From: Ruditapes philippinarum
Taxonomy: Eukaryota
Direction of reading: 5' to 3'
DNA: 64,000 nucleotides
Assembly (NCBI RefSeq): GCF_026571515.1
Contig: NW_026856735.1
Coordinates: 124,001 to 188,000, forward strand
Both the position numbers and the translations under genes were made by a program. The notes beneath the pieces were generated by a model. It ran no database searches and was not told the origin of the DNA. It saw nothing but the letters and a program-made list of their open reading frames with translations. This document shows positions 49,940 through 62,647 of the stretch, piece after piece (positions within the stretch are counted from its first letter, which is position 1; each line of letters starts with the position of its first letter).

Positions 49940-51019
49940 TTAATAATTGATAAAAATTCTATCTCATTTTTTATCTCTTATTTTATCATTTAGTTGTTTG
50001 AATTTATTTCAAAAGTTTTGGAAACAAAGAGAAACGTTTATAATCAAAATAAATAGAACAACAAGTTGTATTTTTTTAAATTTAATTCTGAGTAAATTTT
50101 TTCCCATTACCTTTGCATTTTTTTGCCGTGTTCAGTGCCGAAATTTTTTTATATAAGACTTTAAAATTTAATGTTAATGGTTAATAGAACTAAGGAAAGT
50201 TTTTTTTTTTAAGTTAAGGTACCCCAAACCTTTAAATTATTAACTTTTTTTCAAGACAAAGTTTCACTGAGCATCTGTAAATCAATTAATATGTTTTTCA
50301 TTACGTTGCCATATCTTCGCAATTTAATTTTGTCAATATAATTTCATTAATCCTTTTTTTACACCGTGTGAACAGTATATTTGAAATGTTATATACGCTT
50401 TTATATTTACTTATTTCAAAACAAATTCCACGAAATACAAAGTGCGAAGTAGGTTTTTTGACATTGGATTCATTAAGTAATATAATTATAAGAACGTTTT
50501 TATATTTCCATTGCCATATTTTTATATATTATAGCATAAAATCGGCTATTTTTCCCTCTTTTGCCCATGTTATAACGGGACCAAAACCATGTGTTAACAT
50601 AGTCGTGCGCGCTCTTGTTATAGCCCGGTTTCACCTATGCGCAATACATACAGGGCCCAGTAAACAAACAAACAAAAAATGATGATTTGGCCTGTTTGCC
50701 AAAGAGTCATGCGCTCTTGTTATATTGAAATTTATTGATTCGAGGGCCTCAGTCGCATATTCAAGTAACTATGCCGGAAAAACGGCGTATAGACATCGGT
50801 GCTAATCTTGGTTGTCGCCCTTTCTAAGAAACGGACAGTTGTCAATGTAAACAAACACAGTACTGTAGAATGGACCGTTCCGCGACGGATATTTTTAACC
50901 AATGAAAGTGATCCGTTTACTTCAGTGCGGTATTGCTTGTTGCTACCCGCCATCTTGTGCTCACAAGCTTTCACTTGGCAACTGCTACATCAAAAGTAAA
51001 TACCGCGGTTTTATTCAAA

Positions 51020-53844
51020 ATGGTGCGTAGATGTGCTTGGGGAACATACAATGCAGATTGCAGGTATCCTGATAAGATGATTGGGGTCAGATTCATAACA
51101 TTTCCTAACCCTAAAACTCAATTTGAGAAGTGTTTACGGTGGATAAAGGCATGCGCTCGACCGCATGAACAGTTAAATGTCAACAGGATTAACAAAAATA
51201 AAGTCGTGTGTTCAACGGTAAATGAATCTGTAAGAAATGCTGAATTAAACATGAAATGATTTACTTAGCCAGGCTGGCTTTTGATTTCTGTTTGACGTGT
51301 GCCAACATGACTACATGTTGTTGTCAGTTTTTTTGACAGCTCAAAGCAACTTATGAAATAGCCTAGCTAGCTAAATGAGCTAGTCTAGTCTATGCCTGAA
51401 TAATGTTGAGACCAAAACTGGCTATCCTTAAAAATAATTACAAACTGCTCCAAACTTTTTTATATTTTCATAATACATTTTATCTTTGACTCTTGTCAGA
51501 AAATTCATTATCAATTCAGTAAAAAAGGCATATGTTGATGCACCATGCTAAATGGCTAACTTCATGGTTGGTAGACTATAGATTATATGTTACAAAAAAA
51601 TAGTGACCATGAAAATAATATAATTTGCTAGAGGACTGATCTTTAAACCATATTATTAAAATAATATTTGGTTATTTTGTTAAACATACAAAAAATACTA
51701 AAAAGCCATTTTATATTATGACATTATGACCCTTTCAGCCGGATCATCGGCGGATGGTTACTCTATACAGATCTTTTGTTTCATTTATAGATCTATGTCA
51801 TATATAGAGCCCTACCTCCATTATTGTTATTTGTATTTATTCTTTTTTAATCACTTATTCTCATAATTACAGCACTTCATGGGAGAAAATGGACAGTTAC
51901 TTATGCATGGTCATATAACCTGTAATATGTCATACACAATTTAAATATAGTTTGAAACTATACATTTCCATTACTGCAATGTAAGAAAGGATGAGCATAC
52001 TGTTCAAAAAAACTGGCTAATACATTTAGCATATTTGTCATAAATTGAACATCTGGTTCAACACGCTGAACAAACAAGTCAGACTCATTTGGACAATATA
52101 CAATGAAATCACAGAATGAACTACCTGTAATCATGAGCTGCCCTTGAACCTGGGCATAGTATGCATGATTTGATTTCAGTACAACCTGGCCATTCTGATC
52201 AGTGTGTAAAAAGAAATTATTTAATTGGCAGCAAGCATCAGCAACAGTCAAGTCTCTGGCACTATAGGGACATTTTATTTCTATAATCCCTACTTTTCCA
52301 TTATCACAGAGTTTTCCATCTGGGGTTGCACCCAAAAATGGAAACTCATTATTTACAACAAAACCACATTCATGAATGTGTCTTCCTGGAAACTGAGCTA
52401 GATATTTAGACTTGGCTTTGCTCTCATTTCTTTTCCCATAAGATATAGATGGGGCATGAATATCTTTACCGGTAGAAAATAAACGTGACAGTAATTTTTC
52501 ATTAGGGGGAGATTTCCTTAACATGATTTCACCAAAGTTTGATGCTGTAAGCCTGTTTTGTCTAGCTTGATGCCATTTTTCAGACATTGCCTGGTTTCTT
52601 GTACATTGCTCTAATGTCTGTGGATCTGTTATTGTATAATGACTTATCAAGTGCTGAAACTTTTCAGGAAGTCTAATTGGTGATGAGTTTGTGACACAGA
52701 GGTTACCACAGCCATTTGTTGTTACAGGAATCAGTGACTTCAAATTTCTTGTCTGAAATTAAAATGCAGTTATATTATTTCAGAGAATCAAGATGTTCAT
52801 CTACATGAGGAAAACCTGCAGCTAAAGATTCAATTATTGGAGAAAGACAAAGAAATTAATAGACTGAAATCAAAATTACAACATTTGGAAAGAGATATGA
52901 AAAAGAAACAAACATTTTCTGCAGAAGGAATTAGAAATAGGGAAAAGGATATGAAAAACTTGTTTAAATATTACACTGGAATAACTTATGTCAACTTTTT
53001 ATTTTTGTTTTCTTTTTTGTTTCCAAATCCACAAGAAACTGTAAAATATGGTAGGACTGACACTAAGCTACTATCAAATGAAAATGCACTTCTTCTAGTA
53101 CTATGCAGATTGAGACATGATTTTGGACTGAAAGATTTGGCAATGAGATTTAGTTTATATTTGCAGTCAACAGGCATTGTATTTAACAAACTCTTAGATA
53201 TTTTATATTTTAAATTTGGCCAGATTTCACTGTGGCCCCCAAGGGATGATATTATATCTAGAATGCCAGCAGAATTTAGGAAAGATTTTCCTACAACCTT
53301 AATTATGATAGATGGTTCAGAATTCAAAACTCAAGTACCAAATGCATTAGCTCTTCAAAGTCAAATGTACAGTGATTACAAATCATCTACAACTCTTAAA
53401 GCTTTAATTGGGTGTGACCCAAGTGGATCTGTAATTTTTATTTCTGAGCTTTTTACTGGTTCAATATCAGATAAAATGATCTGTGAAGAAAGTGGATTTT
53501 ATGCCATATTGAAAGATTTGTTAAACCATGGTTACATTAATCCAGGTGATGGTATAATGGCTGATAAGGGGTTTACAATACAAGAGGAACTTAATAAACT
53601 TGGCCTTGTGTTAAACATTCCCCCATTTTCTTCTTGTTCATCACAGATGTCTTCATCTGATACTTATTTAACTCAAAAAATTGCCAAACACAGAGTTCAT
53701 GTTGAAAGAGTAATAGCTAAAGTGAAGACATATAAATTGTTGTCTCATAAAATTCCTACATCTTTATTTAAACAAGCTAATAAGATCTGGTCTGTTTGTG
53801 CAATTCTTACATTACATCAGAGAATATTTGTAAAAGACAAATAA
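51020..53844 (+). CDS. ISL2EU transposase (THAP, HTH_Tnp_4, DDE_Tnp_4); N-terminal part possibly damaged
   Basis: Exon 1 51020-51217 (MVRRCAWGTYN..FITFP..RWIKAC..VCST, donor GTAAAT). Exon 2 starts at 51873 (TTACAG|CAC TTC, completing CSTHF) and its end is uncertain. Last exon 52784-53844 has a coiled coil, YYTG, LLLVLCRLR..DLAMRF, and the catalytic IDGSE, ADKGF and RVHVERVI motifs. Confidence 0.88.
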
Positions 53845-55733
53845 CTGAGTTGCAATAACATTTGTTTAACAAATAATAACATACTACTGCAAAATTAGTA
53901 GTTATGTTATTACTTGATTGATTTTGGATGAATTTGTATTAAAGATATACTATGCTCAAATTTGATATTAGAAAATATTGATAATTAGTACATAGTAAAT
54001 ATAAAATAAACATGTATTGACTTCACACAAAGTAGATATGTTATGTTTAAAATTCTACATACTATAGGTGGTCACAATATGAATATACATGTATAGTGTC
54101 ATTACAAAAACTGGCATTTTTTTAAAGAAAAGAACAACTTTACTTGACCTGTTCAAGGGAATGCAGCTTCCTATACATAGTTTATTCAATCTTTTATCCA
54201 AATTCAACATATTTAGTAAGAATATCATAGATTTCAATGAATTTCTGTGATTAAAACATTTTACCTAAGAATGAGCAATTCAATTAAACCTTATGTATAT
54301 TACATAGATGTTAAAATATTGTATCTACAAATATATTACCTGATATGACAGAAATGAACCAAGCTGAACTTGACCAAGATCTGTTGTAACTAATGGCCTC
54401 TTTGATGAGAGAAGGTATTCAAGAGGTGTGCCTTTGGCCCCTTTTAACTGCTCTATATCTTTGCTGGTAACCTCTGGAAGCCTGTAATTTATGTGAAAGA
54501 TTTCATAAATTAAAACATTTTAACAAATTTTATACATGTAAAATGTACAAGTATCTGACATTATTGTTAAAATTTATATAAGTAAAACGCCTAAATGGTT
54601 ATAGTTATGTAAGATAAATAAAGAAGGAAATTTTAAAAACATATTTGTAGTTACTTTTTACTTTGTTTAAAATCTTACTTGTACTGAGTGTCAACTTGGC
54701 AAAAAACTGGTTTTCTCTTCCTTGTCTCACAAGCTTTGGCCACCACAACATGGTTAAGTGGGACAGGCTCTATTTTCTCTCCTCTTGGAACATGCCATTG
54801 TTGGGGCACACTTGTACAGCTCAACTGGTCAGGTACATTACTGATGTTGTGTAGTTTCAGTCCTTGAAGGGTTTTTACTAGACCAATAATGTGGGAACAG
54901 TGGCCTGTTAATCTGAAATATACAAGACTGCACATTATTATTGTATCAAATAGTGATTCAACAATGATGATGATAAATCATGAGGATGATGATGATCATC
55001 ATTTTTGTTATCATTAGATCTTTTTTGATTAAGTTGACAGAAAAAATTCACCATGACTCTTTTATCTGTCTATACAGTAAATCGTTTTTACAAAAGCACG
55101 AAAATGTTTCTACAAGACTACATCAGACTCTGTACAATTAGGCCTATTCAAGGATGGTTAAATATATATTTTTTTCTGCATTGAAGAGAATAAATAAAAA
55201 ATCCGACATAGTTATTTAATAAAAAGATCTACATAATGGTGTATAGTCTATACATTTTTTTTATATTTTTCATTTATTTATTTTATTCTATTTTATTAGA
55301 TTATTATTTTTTTTTTTTTTTGGAAAGTGGGAGGGGTGCAATTCATTTTTTATTCTAAAATAGAGAAATGCAGTATCCCCAAAGAAAGCCTACTTAATTA
55401 AGTTGTTGACAATTTTACGTACTCGATTACTTACCCAACCTTACAAGAGCAGTACGACTCTGTTATAGTATCTTTAAGAATCTCAATGTGTAGCGTGTGC
55501 GGCTTTTCGTTTTTCCTCATAGATCTCCAACACCGAGCAACAACCTTTACCTTGGGTTTATCGTCAATATGAACCCTAATTTGATGGACATAGCCTTGTA
55601 GATAGTAATTTAAACCTCTTTTTATAATCCTTTCCATAAGACTTCTATGATTAGGTAGAAAACTAATAGATATATTATCGGGTACATCTTCTAGCGAGTC
55701 GGTTGTTGTTGATGAAACAGGTACGGCCGCCAT
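51958..55733 (-). CDS. SWIM zinc finger plus YqaJ (lambda-exonuclease family, PD-(D/E)XK) protein of the ISL2EU element, 489 aa
   Basis: Exons 55733-55435, 54912-54679, 54481-54340 and 52752-51958; all GT-AG, phases 2/2/0 consistent, 1470 nt. SWIM motif CSCKVG|LTGHCSH spans intron 1. Also SCTSVPQQWHVP and GSFLSYQ, then YqaJ motifs WHQARQNRLTASNFG, YGKRNE, FLGATPDG, IEIKCP, YYAQVQGQL. Confidence 0.92.
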
Positions 55734-56344
55734 TTTGGATGCTGGCTTGTGAGGCATAGCAACAATCACTAGGGATTGCGCAATAGGCGGAAATAATCGG
55801 AACGGTCCATCTACCTGTCATTCAGTTTAACACTCCGATTAACTTACAAAACTAGATAACACAAAATTAATATGAGAAAATGTTTTTTATTTATGTTTAT
55901 GTTGATAAATGCTCTTTATATTTCTTTGAGAGAATAATGCTTAGTGCCTGATTTTTTTGTAAACTTGTTTGCTTGAAAAAAAAAACGATTCTGAATCTGA
56001 TGTCACTGATCTATATGATCTTTTTCTACCGTCAATCTGAAATCATTCTAAGAATATCTGAGGGTCGTGTTTTGTCTTGGGTAGAGGGTAGAGTAATGTA
56101 ACGTTGTTTTTTTTTTTCTTGAGATAATAAATCTCCAAAGGCCAAGCTTTCTTAAATCAATTAAAATTCAAAATTTCGTTCGGTTCCGAGAATTTTCCAA
56201 GTTGTTGGCCCCGGAAAAATGAAACGCATACGTAAAACATAGAATTGGATAAATACCGTCCAAGCACAAGAATTTAATGTAATCGTGTTTTGTATAAACT
56301 ATACATCACGAATCTGTTTGAAAATTTTATGCTATGATAGCGTC

Positions 56345-56475
56345 AACGCACGTTTATTTCGTGTTATAAAGTCTGCAGAGTCCCTCGGAACTGTTGGAGC
56401 CCTCGCCCTACCGGGCTCGGGCCCCAACCGTTCCTCTGGACTCTGCATACGTTATAACACGGAAAAACGTGCGTT
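56345..56475. repeat. Long hairpin, probable end of the element (about 50527-56490) into which ISL2EU inserted
   Basis: AACGCACGTTT..CGTGTTATAAAGTCTGCAGAGTCC pairs with GGACTCTGCATACGTTATAACACG..AAACGTGCGTT; loop GCCCTCGCCCTACCGGGCTCGGGC. Confidence 0.7.
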
Positions 56476-56497
56476 AACCCTATACTATAAACGTTAA

Positions 56498-56753: not shown

Positions 56754-58428
56754 TTTAGGTAAATTATGTTAAGACTTTGCGGATGACATTATCTTAATCA
56801 AAGAAAAAAGCGAAAGCCCAGATGTGTGTACTTTGAGGACAGAGACTCAGTTTAGTCTTAAGTTATTTCCTCATAAAGCCTTTCACTTTAATTTATAGAA
56901 AAAACAATATGAGAAAGTAAATAATACGGAAGTTGTTGCAGGAAAGACTGCGCGTGACAGCTGCTGCCAAGTGGCAAGTATGCTAATGGTAATTTTAAAA
57001 TATGCAAGTAAGAAAGTTGGAACCACATATCTTGATAGTATGATATTGAAAGAAATCATACAAGAGGATCATGATGGTCCTTTTATTGCTAACCTGATTT
57101 TATGGCTCTTAATGGCAATGTACATTTTAAATATATATATATTGTTAGCTTTAAATAAAAAGCGGATATAATGTCATAATCTTAAACTGATATCATAACG
57201 TTCGTATCTGCACCTTAAAAAGTGAATAATAAAGTAAACAAGGTGTTTACATATTTGTGCTGTGTCACCTAGTGTTTGATCCCAGATGAACCATATTCAA
57301 ACTCGACATAGAAAGCATTTAAGCACATTGCTGACAAATGTCATAAAACACAAGGTAAAACAAAGTTTTCCATATTTATGTTCTGACATCAAATGGATCA
57401 TATTTAAAGTTGAGCAAGAAATCAATACAACACGTTTCAGATATTCGGGCTGAAAATATTGCCTCTAGAGTGTGATATAAGGTTTTCCAAACTTTGGGCC
57501 GTGTGACCTAGTTTTTAACCGCAGATGACTCATATTCTATCTTGACTCAGAAATCAAAGAAGCAACCTTTGACAAATTTCTATTATATTTGTAATAAAAA
57601 TATTACTTCAAGAGTGTTAACAAACCTTTTTCCATATTTGTGTTGTGTGACCCCAAATGACCCAAATTCGAACTTGATCTAGAAATTATCTAAACCAACC
57701 TTTGTGACAAATTTTCAGGACATTTGGGCTGACAATATTACCTCAAGAATGTTAATGTCACAGAGTCATTTTGTCTTTGCTAGAATACTCTGTATTTTAT
57801 ACCTATACTCTTTATATCATTCCCCTATCGTCTCTAGTTCAAGCTTCCATATCATTATTCAACTTCATACAAATATACTTCATTTTACCTTTAACACGTT
57901 TACGGGCCTCATTCACTTCATTTTTTTTTTGAATTCGGTCACGCTTACCTTTACGCATGCGCAAAAAAAATGAGGATCTTATAACGAGAGCTGTTGTTTT
58001 CTTCACTGAATCCTTATTTCTATTTTATTTTGTGCCAACAATATAATTACAGGTGTTTTTTATGTTATAAAACATTGTAAACATAAATTACTATGATATG
58101 TGTATGTATTTCGCTTGGAATTATTGAAAGCACAAGAAATGAGACTCTTATAGCGAGAGCTGTTGTTTTCTTCACTGATTCCTTATCTCTATTTTATTGT
58201 GTGTCAAGCATGTAATTACAGGTCTCTCTTCGAACGCCCTATCCTCCTGAGTGAGAACTCCTGTATATCCGTGACATTTGGTGGCCAGTGTGGGGGACCT
58301 TGAGTGTAAGCTCAGAGTCTAACTTACATTGCTCTGTAACTCTGTAAAATTCGAGGACGAATTTCATTAGCAGGGGAGTACGTGACGGTTCAGAATTGTT
58401 CACTATTTAGGGGAGAAGATGTGTAAGC

Positions 58429-60308
58429 GGCCGGATAGCTCAGTCGCCCAGCAAACATACCTATATCGGGCCGATATCGGCTAAATGTCGGAATATCGAA
58501 GTCGGATTTCCGCTATCGAACCGATATATATCCGATATAGACAAACTTATTAAAGACAGGATGATATCGGTCCGATATAGGTCCAATATACATTTATTTC
58601 CTGTTATTCAATTAAATGAGTTTTTTAGTATATTCTTCTCAAATTCATTTCAGCAAGAAATCGATGCTTTTGTAAAGAGTAATTAAGTCGTTTTCATAAA
58701 AAATACTTCGGTGCTATATCGGCTCCATGTCTGTTGCCGATTTAGTGTATAAGTGATTTGCACAACGTGGTATTTTTCTAGCCCACCTGCCATCAGAAGA
58801 AGTTTGCGCCAAAACTAAAAAAAGTGGATTTTTTCTCAAATACTACTGGTAAATTTATAAATTACTTATGCTTTTGAATAAATTCATTGTTGTAGTATTC
58901 GGCGTCATTGATATTTTGAACGTAGGTTTGGGAATTTCATAATTATCTCGCCGAAAATTATTTTGTAATACATTTTCGCGACTGTTTTTAAATTGTTGCC
59001 TGAAATTTAGCGGCTGAGAGAGAATAAACATCAAGTTATAATCTTCTTTTTATTTTTATTAAAAGTTATAATGATGATAGAGATGTCAAATGAAAGTTTT
59101 AATCAGAAATAATGTTATGAAAGTTTTAATCAGAAATAATGAAATGTTGATTACTTTAAAAGAAAAAGATAGTGCCTGCTTGCCTTTTGAAAGGATACTT
59201 TTCTTAACATAGTCCTTTAGTAATAAAAATGTGAATATACTATTATGTTGATATATTTTCTTAATGTTTGAAACATGAATGATTCATTGCAGGTAAATCA
59301 TCTGTCTGTGACATGACAAACATACCCGAATCAGAGTGCTGACAACTGAAATAGCTGGTTTTGGAGAAAGAATAGAAGCTAAAGATGACCAATTGATGCA
59401 ATACAGCAGACTAAAAACTAAACAATTGAAGAAGTTCATATATATCGGGACTCCTGGAGGAACCATGCACAATTGACACTTGACATTATTAACTCATGTA
59501 CAAATTACAAAATGCTGTTTAACTATTCAACATGATAATGTGAAAAAAGTCAGCTATTCTTTTAAAGTTTTACTCAAACTCGTAATAACTGGAGTATGAA
59601 TCAATGTGCAAAATCTAAAATACAGTTACTAAATATATCAGAGATAACAGCTTGACACTTTCTAGACAGATTTTAAGTCTACAGGATGTAAAAAAGCAAA
59701 GGAACAAGTAAGAAAAATGCCATTGAGCTTATTTTATCTAAACAAAAAGTAGTATGAATATAGCAAGGTTGTATTTGCCAGTCACATGACTTAAGTATTT
59801 TTGTTAAAACAATTTAATTTTGACTGATCTTTATAGGAAACATGTAAAGATTAATGTTTAAATTTTAATGTGTGTTAACTTAGCAAGGAAAAATCGTAAG
59901 TTAAACATACATGGTTTTTAAACATTGAAGTATTTATGTGTAAATTATAAAATATATTATGTATATGAATTTTTAATTTTGCTGATGTAATAAAAGGTAT
60001 TGCAAAATAAATATATGTTCTGTTATATGTTAAGGAAAGCAAACCAATATGCTGTTAGAAATAAAAAAGCTTATTATGAATGAAGGTATAATATCGGCTG
60101 TAAGTCGGTATTCGATATCGGCATCCGATATCGGCCCGACTTTGAGCCGGGTTGCACATCCGATGTCGAGCCGACTTCGGATGCCGATATCGGGCCGACA
60201 TTGAAGATGATATCGGGCCGACATCGGTCCTATATGTAATGTTTTCTGGGCCGGGTAGAGCCGCGGTACGGTATTCCGAGGGTCCCGGGTTCTAGTCCCG
60301 GTCAGGCT
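58429..60308 (+). pseudogene. tRNA-derived sequence inside LTR-B, split by a transposon (58429-58446 and 60254-60308)
   Basis: GGCCGGATAGCTCAGTCG // GGTAGAGC...GGTCCCGGGTTCTAGTCCCGGTCAGGC: D arm, T arm and acceptor pairing are recognisable. GGT falls at the anticodon position (Thr-like) but the anticodon stem is degenerate. Confidence 0.7.
58447..60250. mobile_element. Non-autonomous EnSpm/CACTA-like DNA transposon
   Basis: CCCAGCAAACAT ... ATGTTTTCTGGG termini, clustered subterminal CCGATATCGG palindromes at both ends, flanks TCG/CCG (3-bp TSD, 1 mismatch), no ORF. Confidence 0.75.
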
Positions 60309-62647
60309 TCCCCTTTTTTCCCACCCTGTGACATTAACATTATATTTTGAATGAAAATATTACCTCTAAGGTATTAACAAACTTTTTCTATATTTGGATC
60401 GTGTGACTTCAGATGACCCAAATTCGTGATTGAGCTAAAATTATCTAAAACAAACTTCTATTCTGATCAATTTCCGGGATAGTTTAGGCTGACACTTTTA
60501 CCTCCACAGTGTTAACAATGTGTTTCCATATTTTGGCTGTGAAAGTTTTATATTTTTCCTTTCTTTTTTTTTTTTTTTTTTTTTTTTGGCTCCTGTGACT
60601 TAGTTTTTCTGTTCGAACTTGTCCAAGCAATCACTGGAACAAACATCCAGACCAAGTTTGGTTACACTCGAGGCAATAATGTGACAGACTAAATGTTGGG
60701 CGGAGGACAGACGGCGGGCATTCAACGACCATAACAGCTCGTCTTGAGCCAGCTCTGTTGAGCTAATAATATCGCAGAAAGAGCGTCTAGGTGAACGATC
60801 TTCAATGATCAGAAATGCCGCTTATCAGATCGTTTAGTAATAATTTTCTAATGATTTACAAGCAAAAAATACATATATTTTAACGTTTAATTAAGTTTGT
60901 TTTAGTATATTTTCACTTAATCGCCTGGTAAACAAAGGGAGCAGGTGTTGTATGACGATTAGCCGTAAACATAACTTTTTATTTGATTATCAAAAAAAAA
61001 ATGTTCATTTCAATAGCATTTCCTAGTTTTTTACAGAATAATACACTCATATAGCATTCATTTTTGTTAGCAGAAAGCCAATTAGTAATTGTCTCCTATC
61101 CATAAACTTAAAGGGTAAGTATGTATTTTTTATACATGTACTTTTCCATTTTCATAAAAAAATATTTCGAAAACAGAATTATTTTCACATTCAAATACAA
61201 TTATTCGAGATTTTCTTTCCTTTTCTTTTTCTTTCTTTTCTTTCTTTAATTTTAATTAAGCTATGACGCACTTTTTTTTAGATTTTATTTCACATTTACT
61301 TGGATATTCGAACATTATTTGTAACATTAAATGTCGTAAAAACCATGGATATACATTTATTTATGTATTTTTTCCCCTATTACCATATCAGGCTAATATA
61401 ATTAAACGATTATTGTTTAGTTAGTTAGTTTTGTATTTTTGTTTCAATTGAAATAAAGTTTCCTTTTAAAAGGAAAGGCTTGCCCAGTTGTGTCATCATC
61501 ACATCCCTTTAAAACAATTTTTTTTTGAAAAACCTCGTAAAACTCTTTATGATGAAGAAATAATTATAAAAATAATAATAATAATTTGACCTAATATACC
61601 AGTAAAAAAACAAGGTACCTATGTTTTTTACAGGTATAGAGCGTCAATTTATTATCACTATTTTTTTTTAATTATTTGTATTTGTATATCATAATGGGTT
61701 TATTAAGTTTTTTTTTTTTTTTTTTTTTTTTTTTTCGAAAAAAAAGTTTCACTTTTAAAGGGGTAGGTAGGGTAACCCCAAGACTGGACGAGCACCTGTG
61801 CCCATTTGTGCCACAAGTGTTATGCATACAAATTTGTAAAAGAGAAGGACCAGAAGTCCACTGATTATAACTGAAACGGAACATGCTGACGATAACAGTA
61901 ACAACTTACTTTGTAAAAACGAATATTTTTTTGTCAAAAACGATTTGAAATCTGTTGTCTATTGTATAAAACTAATAAAGAAAATAATCAATCGTAAAAA
62001 TACTAACACTGGCTCTCCCACGTGGAGGAAATAAAAGTATCTATCTATCATACTGAAGGTCAGACACTCACATTGATATTTCCATAGACTTACATTATAA
62101 GAAATGGTCCCTAATCCTACCCAAAAATTGAGCTTTCATGCTAGAGGTGATTTTTCTAGCAGAATGAAATGCCTGACACATAAAAATGTTCCTGTTATAT
62201 AGGGGTAGCCATCCTTTTTTTGCAAAATGACTTCAAAGAGGATTACCCCCGTTTCATTGAAATTTTCTGCTGACCACAGGACTGACATACACTTTCTATA
62301 AATGCAGATATCCAAGTCAAAATTATCATAGAGACTCATGAAATATTTCATTTTCCGCAGTATGACGGAATCGCCCGAATTGTCACGATTGCAGCGGAAA
62401 CCAAGACTGGTTTCCCGTTCCATCATGCACTAACAAATGTAAGCAGGAAACCACCAAACCGGAACAACTTTTCCAAAACAAATGGCTTGCCGCCTGTTAT
62501 ACTTAAACTTTTGTAACGCTCTTGTAGACTGTTGAACTTTTTTTTCTATGCGTTTATTTAAGTCGCCGCCGGAAAGCCCATATGGCGACCGTACACTTCA
62601 AGTCGGGCCATCCTTAGAAGCGACCCCCCGAGATTTTTTCGTCGATT

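Follow-up and report, generated by a model that had tools for sequence, protein, structure and literature searches.

The stretch analysed here (contig NW_026856735.1, positions 124,001 to 188,000; 64,000 nucleotides, called the window below, in whose own numbering positions are given) carries at 57756-60333 a single insertion with two unlike long terminal repeats (LTRs). Within a TTAA target-site duplication (TSD) lie a left LTR (LTR-A), a primer-binding site (PBS) for tRNA-Ile, a short interior, a polypurine tract (PPT) and a right LTR (LTR-B). We read this arrangement as a hybrid of an autonomous Gypsy retrotransposon and a terminal-repeat retrotransposon in miniature (TRIM), probably joined during reverse transcription. 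The parts, with the basis of each assignment, are:

57752..57755, + strand: left TSD, TTAA (sequence reading)
57756..58276, + strand: LTR-A, full-length LTR from a gag-pol Gypsy family primed by tRNA-Ile, 521 bp (family comparison)
57961..58223, + strand: 94-bp duplication inside LTR-A, arms 57961-58054 and 58130-58223
58277..58278, + strand: 2-nt linker from LTR to PBS (sequence and family comparison)
58279..58296, + strand: PBS, 18/18 complementary to the tRNA-Ile(AAT) 3' end (genome's tRNA genes plus CCA)
58297..58368, + strand: putative Helenus-type TRIM interior (comparison with ordinary copies)
58369..58380, + strand: TRIM PPT (sequence and family comparison)
58381..58446, + strand: 5' part of LTR-B, up to the tRNA A box; bases 1 and 4 unlike the family
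58447..60250, no strand assigned: younger non-autonomous DNA transposon (short terminal inverted repeats and subterminal repeats)
60251..60333, + strand: 3' part of LTR-B, with the remaining tRNA-like region, B box, T-run and terminal CA (sequence, comparison)
60334..60337, + strand: right TSD, TTAA (sequence reading)
57235..60546, + strand: degenerate host tandem repeat, units of about 120-145 bp, the target of the insertion (self-comparison)

A preliminary description of this DNA had proposed one insertion with a TTAA TSD and a 521-bp LTR-A, and both are found as listed. The two LTRs, which it held to be dissimilar, indeed show no similarity, local scores of LTR-A against either half of LTR-B being matched by 9-89% of 200 shuffles. 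Several of its measures need adjusting: the duplication in LTR-A, put at about 85 bp, is 94 bp long with arms 87% alike in the window (99-100% in five other copies); LTR-B, put at about 146 bp, is 144 bp in its family; and in the family the LTR starts past the first purine tract, at 58381, and includes the second purine run, which leaves no place for the alternative start at 58420. The TATA-like word noted in LTR-A is missing from that place in the copy on C907. The insertion spans 2.6 kb because a 1,804-bp DNA transposon splits LTR-B, and this split is also why ARAGORN calls no tRNA in the window. The window copy is older than most: its LTR-A stands about 10% apart from 12 other copies, whose mutual divergence is 1.3%, and its TRIM part stands 7-9% apart from one ordinary copy (58297-58380 against one ordinary copy: 75 matches, 7 mismatches). 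With regard to hypermutation, LTR-A in the window shows no skewed substitution spectrum.

The two parents of the insertion

As the preliminary description expected, LTR-A flanks gag-pol elements. A genome search with it gave at least 41 matches (40 scored of 1,384 candidates), many paired 4-10 kb apart, and the interiors between such pairs hold a PNMA-like gag and pol frames with Pfam RVT_1, RT_RNaseH and rve (reverse transcriptase, RNase H, integrase) in Gypsy order. This family, A, has a PBS and a PPT and a 4-bp TSD in 5/6 LTR pairs (L010/L017, L007/L019, L003/L011, L018/L023 and L012/L028, not L021/L029), and it also occurs as solo LTRs. LTR-A had been expected to identify the autonomous partner; it does mark a gag-pol family, but there are at least four partners in all. 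Pol is likewise present in families C, D and E, 57-69% identical to that of family A over the main stretches, and their LTRs together with LTR-A make four unrelated helper LTRs. Family G has a 13-nt Lys-type site, with no pol found within 10 kb behind two of its copies; its single join to the TRIM lies at a contig end. At C9729:33509-42064 two family-A 5' LTRs stand 8 kb apart with the same left flank, either a tandem duplication or an assembly artefact. The tandem on C10991, which might pass for a TRIM, consists of a duplicated LTR end from a different family.

The other parent is abundant. Interior and LTR-B together gave at least 104 genome matches (40 scored of 3,656 candidates), most of them the ordinary B-interior-B elements foreseen in the preliminary description, 395 bp long (144 + 107 + 144 bp) or in tandem arrays, with 4-bp TSDs of their own (e.g. 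L033, L038, L041, L049, L050). These copies have two LTRs with PBS and PPT between them in under about 1 kb, and ARAGORN calls a tRNA, of varying isotype, in both LTRs of 7/7 ordinary copies and in none of hybrid L002. The accessible parts of Kojima 2024 (PMC10886601) describe Helenus TRIMs (TRIMp3), including a bivalve tRNA-Lys group, e.g. Helenus-3_CGi, with the same traits: a tRNA-derived LTR with A and B boxes, a length of about 400 bp, a PPT, a 4-bp TSD and tandem arrays, beside a Lys PBS that the TRIM probably has in common with them. By eye, the TRIM interior and LTR end also resemble Helenus-3_CGi in its supplement, and we assign the TRIM to the Helenus type on this likeness; its PBS was read as Lys-type, again by eye, from the match to Helenus-3 and from the anticodon of a read-through at C8751 described below. 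The Ajax label first given to LTR-B is rejected, as tRNA-derived LTRs belong to Helenus while those of Ajax, a nemertean group, derive from 5S rRNA (PMC10886601). The window element does not have two matching LTRs, its left one being that of family A, and is a hybrid and not a Helenus member. Another TRIM family, at C7107:58400-60300 (L114), has a complete tRNA-Ile PBS and tandem units of about 280 bp.

Which parent supplied the PBS? The preliminary description called it Ile-tRNA-like, and it matches the genome's tRNA-Ile(AAT) genes plus CCA at 18/18 positions (the tRNA-Ile pattern search gave 14 hits, and 5/6 loci were called tRNA-Ile). It is neither parent's whole genomic PBS, because the TRIM site is Lys-type, its variants matching 11 and 13 of the 18 positions, and the family A site matches tRNA-Ile over only 13 nt and then diverges; in C, D and E the match extends over 13-15 nt. 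Exact junctions of LTR-B, Lys PBS and interior number 202 in the genome, against 0 LTR-B/Ile-PBS junctions found by exact pattern. The 18-mer ends next to the T-loop in the genome's tRNA genes, and primer copying would stop after 18 nt, at modified base 58. The 2-nt linker is identical in length and letters between family A and the TRIM and is therefore uninformative on the crossover at the window.

Hybrid insertions across the genome

The window is not alone. The Ile PBS joined to TRIM interior gave 8 rows, 0 behind LTR-B, 1 behind LTR-A and 7 behind C, D and E. A separate search, for a Lys PBS preceded by anything but a regular B end, returned 9 rows, namely A, D, two more LTR ends (G, F), an inverted B, and B itself four times with an insertion or deletion in the linker. 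Simple hybrids, consisting of a helper LTR, a PBS, TRIM units and a terminal LTR-B, have a matching 4-bp TSD in 9/9 cases, where a chance match is expected at 0.0059 per locus:

family A left LTR: window, C907 and C1850; matching 4-bp TSD
family C left LTR: C2814, C12817 and C4462; matching 4-bp TSD
family D left LTR: C4134 (the same locus as C5442) and C2688; matching 4-bp TSD
family E left LTR: C5251; matching 4-bp TSD

Among them are the further A-interior-B copies with their own TSDs that had been predicted (C907, C1850); the three A-interior-B copies are not alike in age or in the type of PBS. Over all simple hybrids, for which the two PBS types came from separate searches, the site is Ile in 7/9 and Lys in 2/9. 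At C2688 the 3-nt linker of family D precedes a Lys PBS, and the linker is of the helper type where the families differ: the crossover stays inside the PBS. Foreign-LTR junctions number about 12 against 202 ordinary ones, which suggests a hybrid share of about 5%, the two patterns differing in stringency.

Complex helper/TRIM composites have a matching TSD in 9/12 cases with both ends found (C8751, C15326, C2989, C7059, C3753, C14593, C14422, C1311 and C13189), a count that leaves out six loci lacking a located end (C10629, C10220, C10977, C12897, C8718 and C5945). At C15326:40500-50800 (L076, L077) a family-A 3' LTR changes midway to LTR-B and is followed by three TRIM units, all within one 4-bp TSD. 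C3753, C14593, C14422, C1311 and C7059 are head-to-head or fold-back composites with matching TSDs, and in C2989 and C8751 the outer LTRs are alike.

Proposed joining of helper and TRIM strands

In the established pathway the plus-strand strong-stop DNA, a copy of U3-R-U5 extended over the tRNA primer's 3' end, anneals to the minus-strand PBS (PMC6088434, PMC3187697, PMC6894440; accessible parts). We propose that the strong-stop DNA of an Ile-primed Gypsy element jumps instead onto the minus strand of the Lys-primed Helenus-type TRIM, probably in one particle. The helper strand would copy 18 nt of tRNA-Ile and so end in five G that its own 13-15-nt PBS leaves unpaired; this G tail could anneal to the C-run of the TRIM minus-strand PBS, while the first three PBS bases, which are shared, would pair at the other end. 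The mismatched bubble would later be resolved to Ile (7/9) or Lys (2/9), and the hybrid complementary DNA (cDNA) inserted, likely by the Gypsy integrase. The product expected of two such strands, namely helper LTR, helper linker, mixed PBS, TRIM interior and TRIM LTR, has the layout observed. As judged from the pathway, a complete U3-R-U5 with a tRNA-length PBS would exclude a minus-strand switch on normal transcripts. The preliminary description had invoked intermolecular strand transfer through a shared PBS: intermolecular plus-strand transfer stands as the best mechanism, but the PBS is not shared, the TRIM having Lys at 202 junctions and Ile at 0. Two R regions that do not match would make the hybrids predicted dead ends, and each is a separate record of a helper and a TRIM copied together.

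A likely trace of the proposed intermediate is the G tail. The tRNA-Ile 18-mer ends in five G with which the short helper PBSs are unable to pair. Of 49 LTR ends that precede an Ile PBS with at least four G, 20 belong to the second, Ile-primed TRIM, and the remaining 29, from long elements, run into the Lys TRIM (18), their own family (9), a tRNA body (1) or an unidentified sequence (1); none of these 29 joins another helper family or the Ile-primed TRIM. At 12 distinct joints away from a TRIM PBS, the G-run exceeds what helper PBS and acceptor could supply in 8, and 6 follow at least two native G (background 5-7%, P ~5e-5). A tRNA-derived G tail is the origin to which these joints point. Four acceptors taken as cellular sequence were rejected, being family C's own interior. 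At C11261 (L129) an LTR end runs into the tRNA-Ile body including CCA, well past position 58, and at C8751 (L123) an LTR end is followed by a reverse copy, about 65 nt by eye, of a Lys tRNA, again past position 58; both would be integrated read-through strong-stop DNAs. At C812, C4234, C11639, C944, C14212 and C6470, C and D elements are internally deleted or rearranged, with the break beginning at the tRNA-copied G tail. One such joint is present at two loci, and a deleted derivative may have moved again.

Were the partners in one compartment? In the 100 listed junctions (of 136 with an Ile site), read by eye, no helper LTR leads into the interior of another helper family, although the PBSs of the four helpers agree over 13-15 nt, a better match than the Lys site offers. 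The lack of cross-helper joins among the listed junctions therefore favours co-packaging, and fits particles that hold one helper family and a TRIM passenger. The Ile-primed TRIM is about ten times rarer than the Lys TRIM, and its absence among the 29 ends is therefore a weak control. At C8751 a copy of the Ile primer and a tRNA-Lys read-through stand inside one TSD. The hybrids are also one-sided. Reciprocal forms number 0/19 (17 TRIM variants, one read-through, one unidentified), and a search for TRIM interiors that lead into a helper LTR gave mutated TRIM copies in 4/4 pattern hits; in both searches exact patterns miss diverged copies. This polarity could follow from timing, as the 250-nt TRIM minus strand would be done long before an 8-9-kb helper strand, and the TRIM's full-length PBS would also contribute to the absence of reciprocal forms. 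A helper whose PBS matches poorly may be more prone to mis-jumping, and hybrid counts therefore need not measure how much each helper mobilises the TRIM.

The best surviving alternative, which we nevertheless consider unlikely, is host microhomology end-joining (Pol theta/alternative end-joining) outside the particle, between released helper strong-stop DNA and a TRIM minus strand supplied by a different, Lys-primed helper; in that case the hybrids would not reveal the true helpers. In Drosophila, factors of alternative end-joining reportedly drive annealing at the PBS and synthesis of the second strand (bioRxiv 2022.09.25.509424, with PMC12786077 likewise supplying this explanation; accessible parts), the joints use 2-5 nt of microhomology, and a Lys-site LTR family, G, does exist and joins the TRIM once, although no pol was found within 10 kb behind two of its copies. 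If strands mixed freely, however, partners matching over 13-18 nt of Ile PBS would be expected to prevail, namely other helper families and the Ile-primed TRIM, and none occurs in the 29 rows or the 100 listed junctions. Moreover, the mosaics at C15326, C529, C2989 and C8751 switch inside interiors and LTRs, resembling template switching by reverse transcriptase.

Rearrangement after integration is very improbable. This would be recombination, conversion or deletion acting between a genomic A element and an adjacent TRIM, by way of the short stretch common to them at the LTR end and PBS start, or else a solo LTR-A next to a truncated TRIM, the TTAA match being due to chance. It could draw on the solo A LTRs, on the about 11 terminal and linker bases shared by A and B, sufficient for C1850, and on a flanking repeat that is out of register. 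Against this, separate insertions that recombine are left with flanks that do not match (PMC1950507, accessible part), yet 9/9 do; the 18-nt Ile PBS is absent from both parents' genomic copies; and at the LTR end B has next to nothing in common with C, D and E. The variant with a solo LTR or a miniature inverted-repeat transposable element carrying its own TSD, which the preliminary description had set out, also fails at the window, where LTR-A has no TSD of its own. Least credible of all is a self-propagating family alternating two LTR types, or a TRIM that adopted LTR-A: three A-interior-B copies do have TSDs, but they differ in PBS type and age, four different left LTRs are involved, and exact-pattern searches gave it no support, returning neither a TRIM interior leading into a helper LTR nor a reciprocal or swapped form.

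Returning to a strand jump between helper and TRIM, several observations weigh against it or limit it. The TSDs of C12817 and C4134 (2/9 simple hybrids) are weak, lying in TA-rich flanks, and three of the 12 composites (C529, C322, C788) have no matching TSD. The TRIM PBS also has five G at the place of the window's G-run, and at joints in the TRIM PBS, the window's among them, the origin of the G-run is therefore ambiguous. Because the searches started from the Ile PBS, Lys-primed partners are under-sampled, and one Lys-site family, G, also forms a hybrid. Past the insertion the host repeat resumes about 40 bp out of register, which implies a short unit or a deletion at the site. Contigs from four runs of four studies were laid on 57400-58700, with bridging defined as 31 bases on each side (one run may be the source of the assembly). 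Three of the four have contigs that cross from the left flank into LTR-A over more than 31 bases, and none bridges the junction of LTR-A and interior, the best ending at 58299; an assembly error is therefore formally possible for any single locus, although the matching TSDs argue against it. Co-packaging is inferred from junction patterns, and second transfer was intramolecular in three retroviral studies reviewed in PMC12789967 (accessible part). Taking all this together, we regard it as very probable that the hybrid cDNAs arose by intermolecular plus-strand joining of one kind or the other, in a particle or by end-joining, and put the probability of a strand jump, probably inside a shared particle, at about 0.8.

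Neighbouring features and known systems

The transposon nested in LTR-B has at least 40 scored matches in the genome, other copies being up to 98% alike at the left end. Of six copies fetched, 4/4 with both ends found have a 2-bp TSD, and the duplication at the window is imperfect. We take it to be CMC/EnSpm-like, having short inverted repeats, subterminal repeats and a 2-bp TSD, presumably the marks of that group. Upstream, 51958-55817 is probably a multi-gene DNA transposon, with frames at 52738-53844 (+), 51958-52758 (-) and 50912-51259, which resemble a Harbinger-type DDE nuclease, a YqaJ-like nuclease and a THAP-like piece, with presumed SWIM-like pieces as well. A long hairpin at 56337-56483 (55-nt arms, 80% complementary, 4-nt loop), inside a 19-nt inverted repeat, may be the end of the neighbouring transposon.

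The hybrids can be compared with several known products of reverse transcription, cited here from the accessible parts of the papers. The complex insertions of Sabot and Schulman 2007 (PMC1950507) are likewise two elements fused in reverse transcription within one TSD, but they involve close relatives and the first transfer and are recognised by three LTRs with near-identical outer ones, whereas the hybrids have unrelated outer LTRs and a joint at the PBS, and the window has just two, unrelated LTRs. Chimeric TRIMs of sugar beet (PMC13570524) are also non-autonomous elements with another family's LTR, but these two elements are TRIM-to-TRIM, with no PBS mechanism given, unlike the helper-to-TRIM hybrids. 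Second transfer in retroviruses and LTR retrotransposons shares with our model a strong-stop DNA whose tRNA-end copy anneals at the PBS; there it is intramolecular and PBS-complementary and yields identical LTRs, and here it is apparently intermolecular and cross-family, with different primers (PMC6088434, PMC12789967, PMC6894440, PMC3187697). Our literature search, with most subscription journals outside it, did not bring up any account of insertions in which a helper and a TRIM, with unrelated LTRs, are joined across unlike PBSs. Misaligned plus-strand transfer is said to have been seen in retroviral vectors by Pulsinelli and Temin, and Du et al. 2010 reportedly used recombinants from LTR swapping in soybean as evidence of a helper-parasite pair, with related partners and both LTRs swapped.

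What autonomous partner mobilises a particular TRIM is an open question. Biv-TRIM (PMC6934838) and 61/115 sugar beet TRIM families (PMC13570524) were left without one, and how the dependence of Helenus is maintained is described as not known in PMC10886601. The accessible part of that paper ties Helenus to Gypsy by PBS similarity and TSD length and makes no mention of hybrids; here physical hybrids tie a Lys-site TRIM to four Ile-site Gypsy families. The only bivalve subclass it lists is Pteriomorphia, and six clam-related names had no match in its supplement; if the host is the Manila clam, the Helenus-type family falls outside that subclass.

The hybrids give a physical, sequence-only assay for helpers. 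They contradict the PBS rule for helper assignment in this genome. We lean towards the wider view that one putative RNA polymerase III TRIM parasitises a whole Gypsy clade primed by a different tRNA, that the primer match therefore does not select the helper, that plus-strand transfer can be intermolecular and cross-family, and that the hybrids are a fossil record assigning helpers. They appear to preserve a usually invisible intermediate of reverse transcription, with its tRNA-copied tail and a PBS mismatch resolved either way, and may be the missing intermediate by which a TRIM changes its primer tRNA. An insertion can be born with unrelated LTRs, and LTR-pair finders and dating by LTR divergence would miss it. 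If the proposal is true, one-sided hybrids could assign helpers to TRIMs in any genome.

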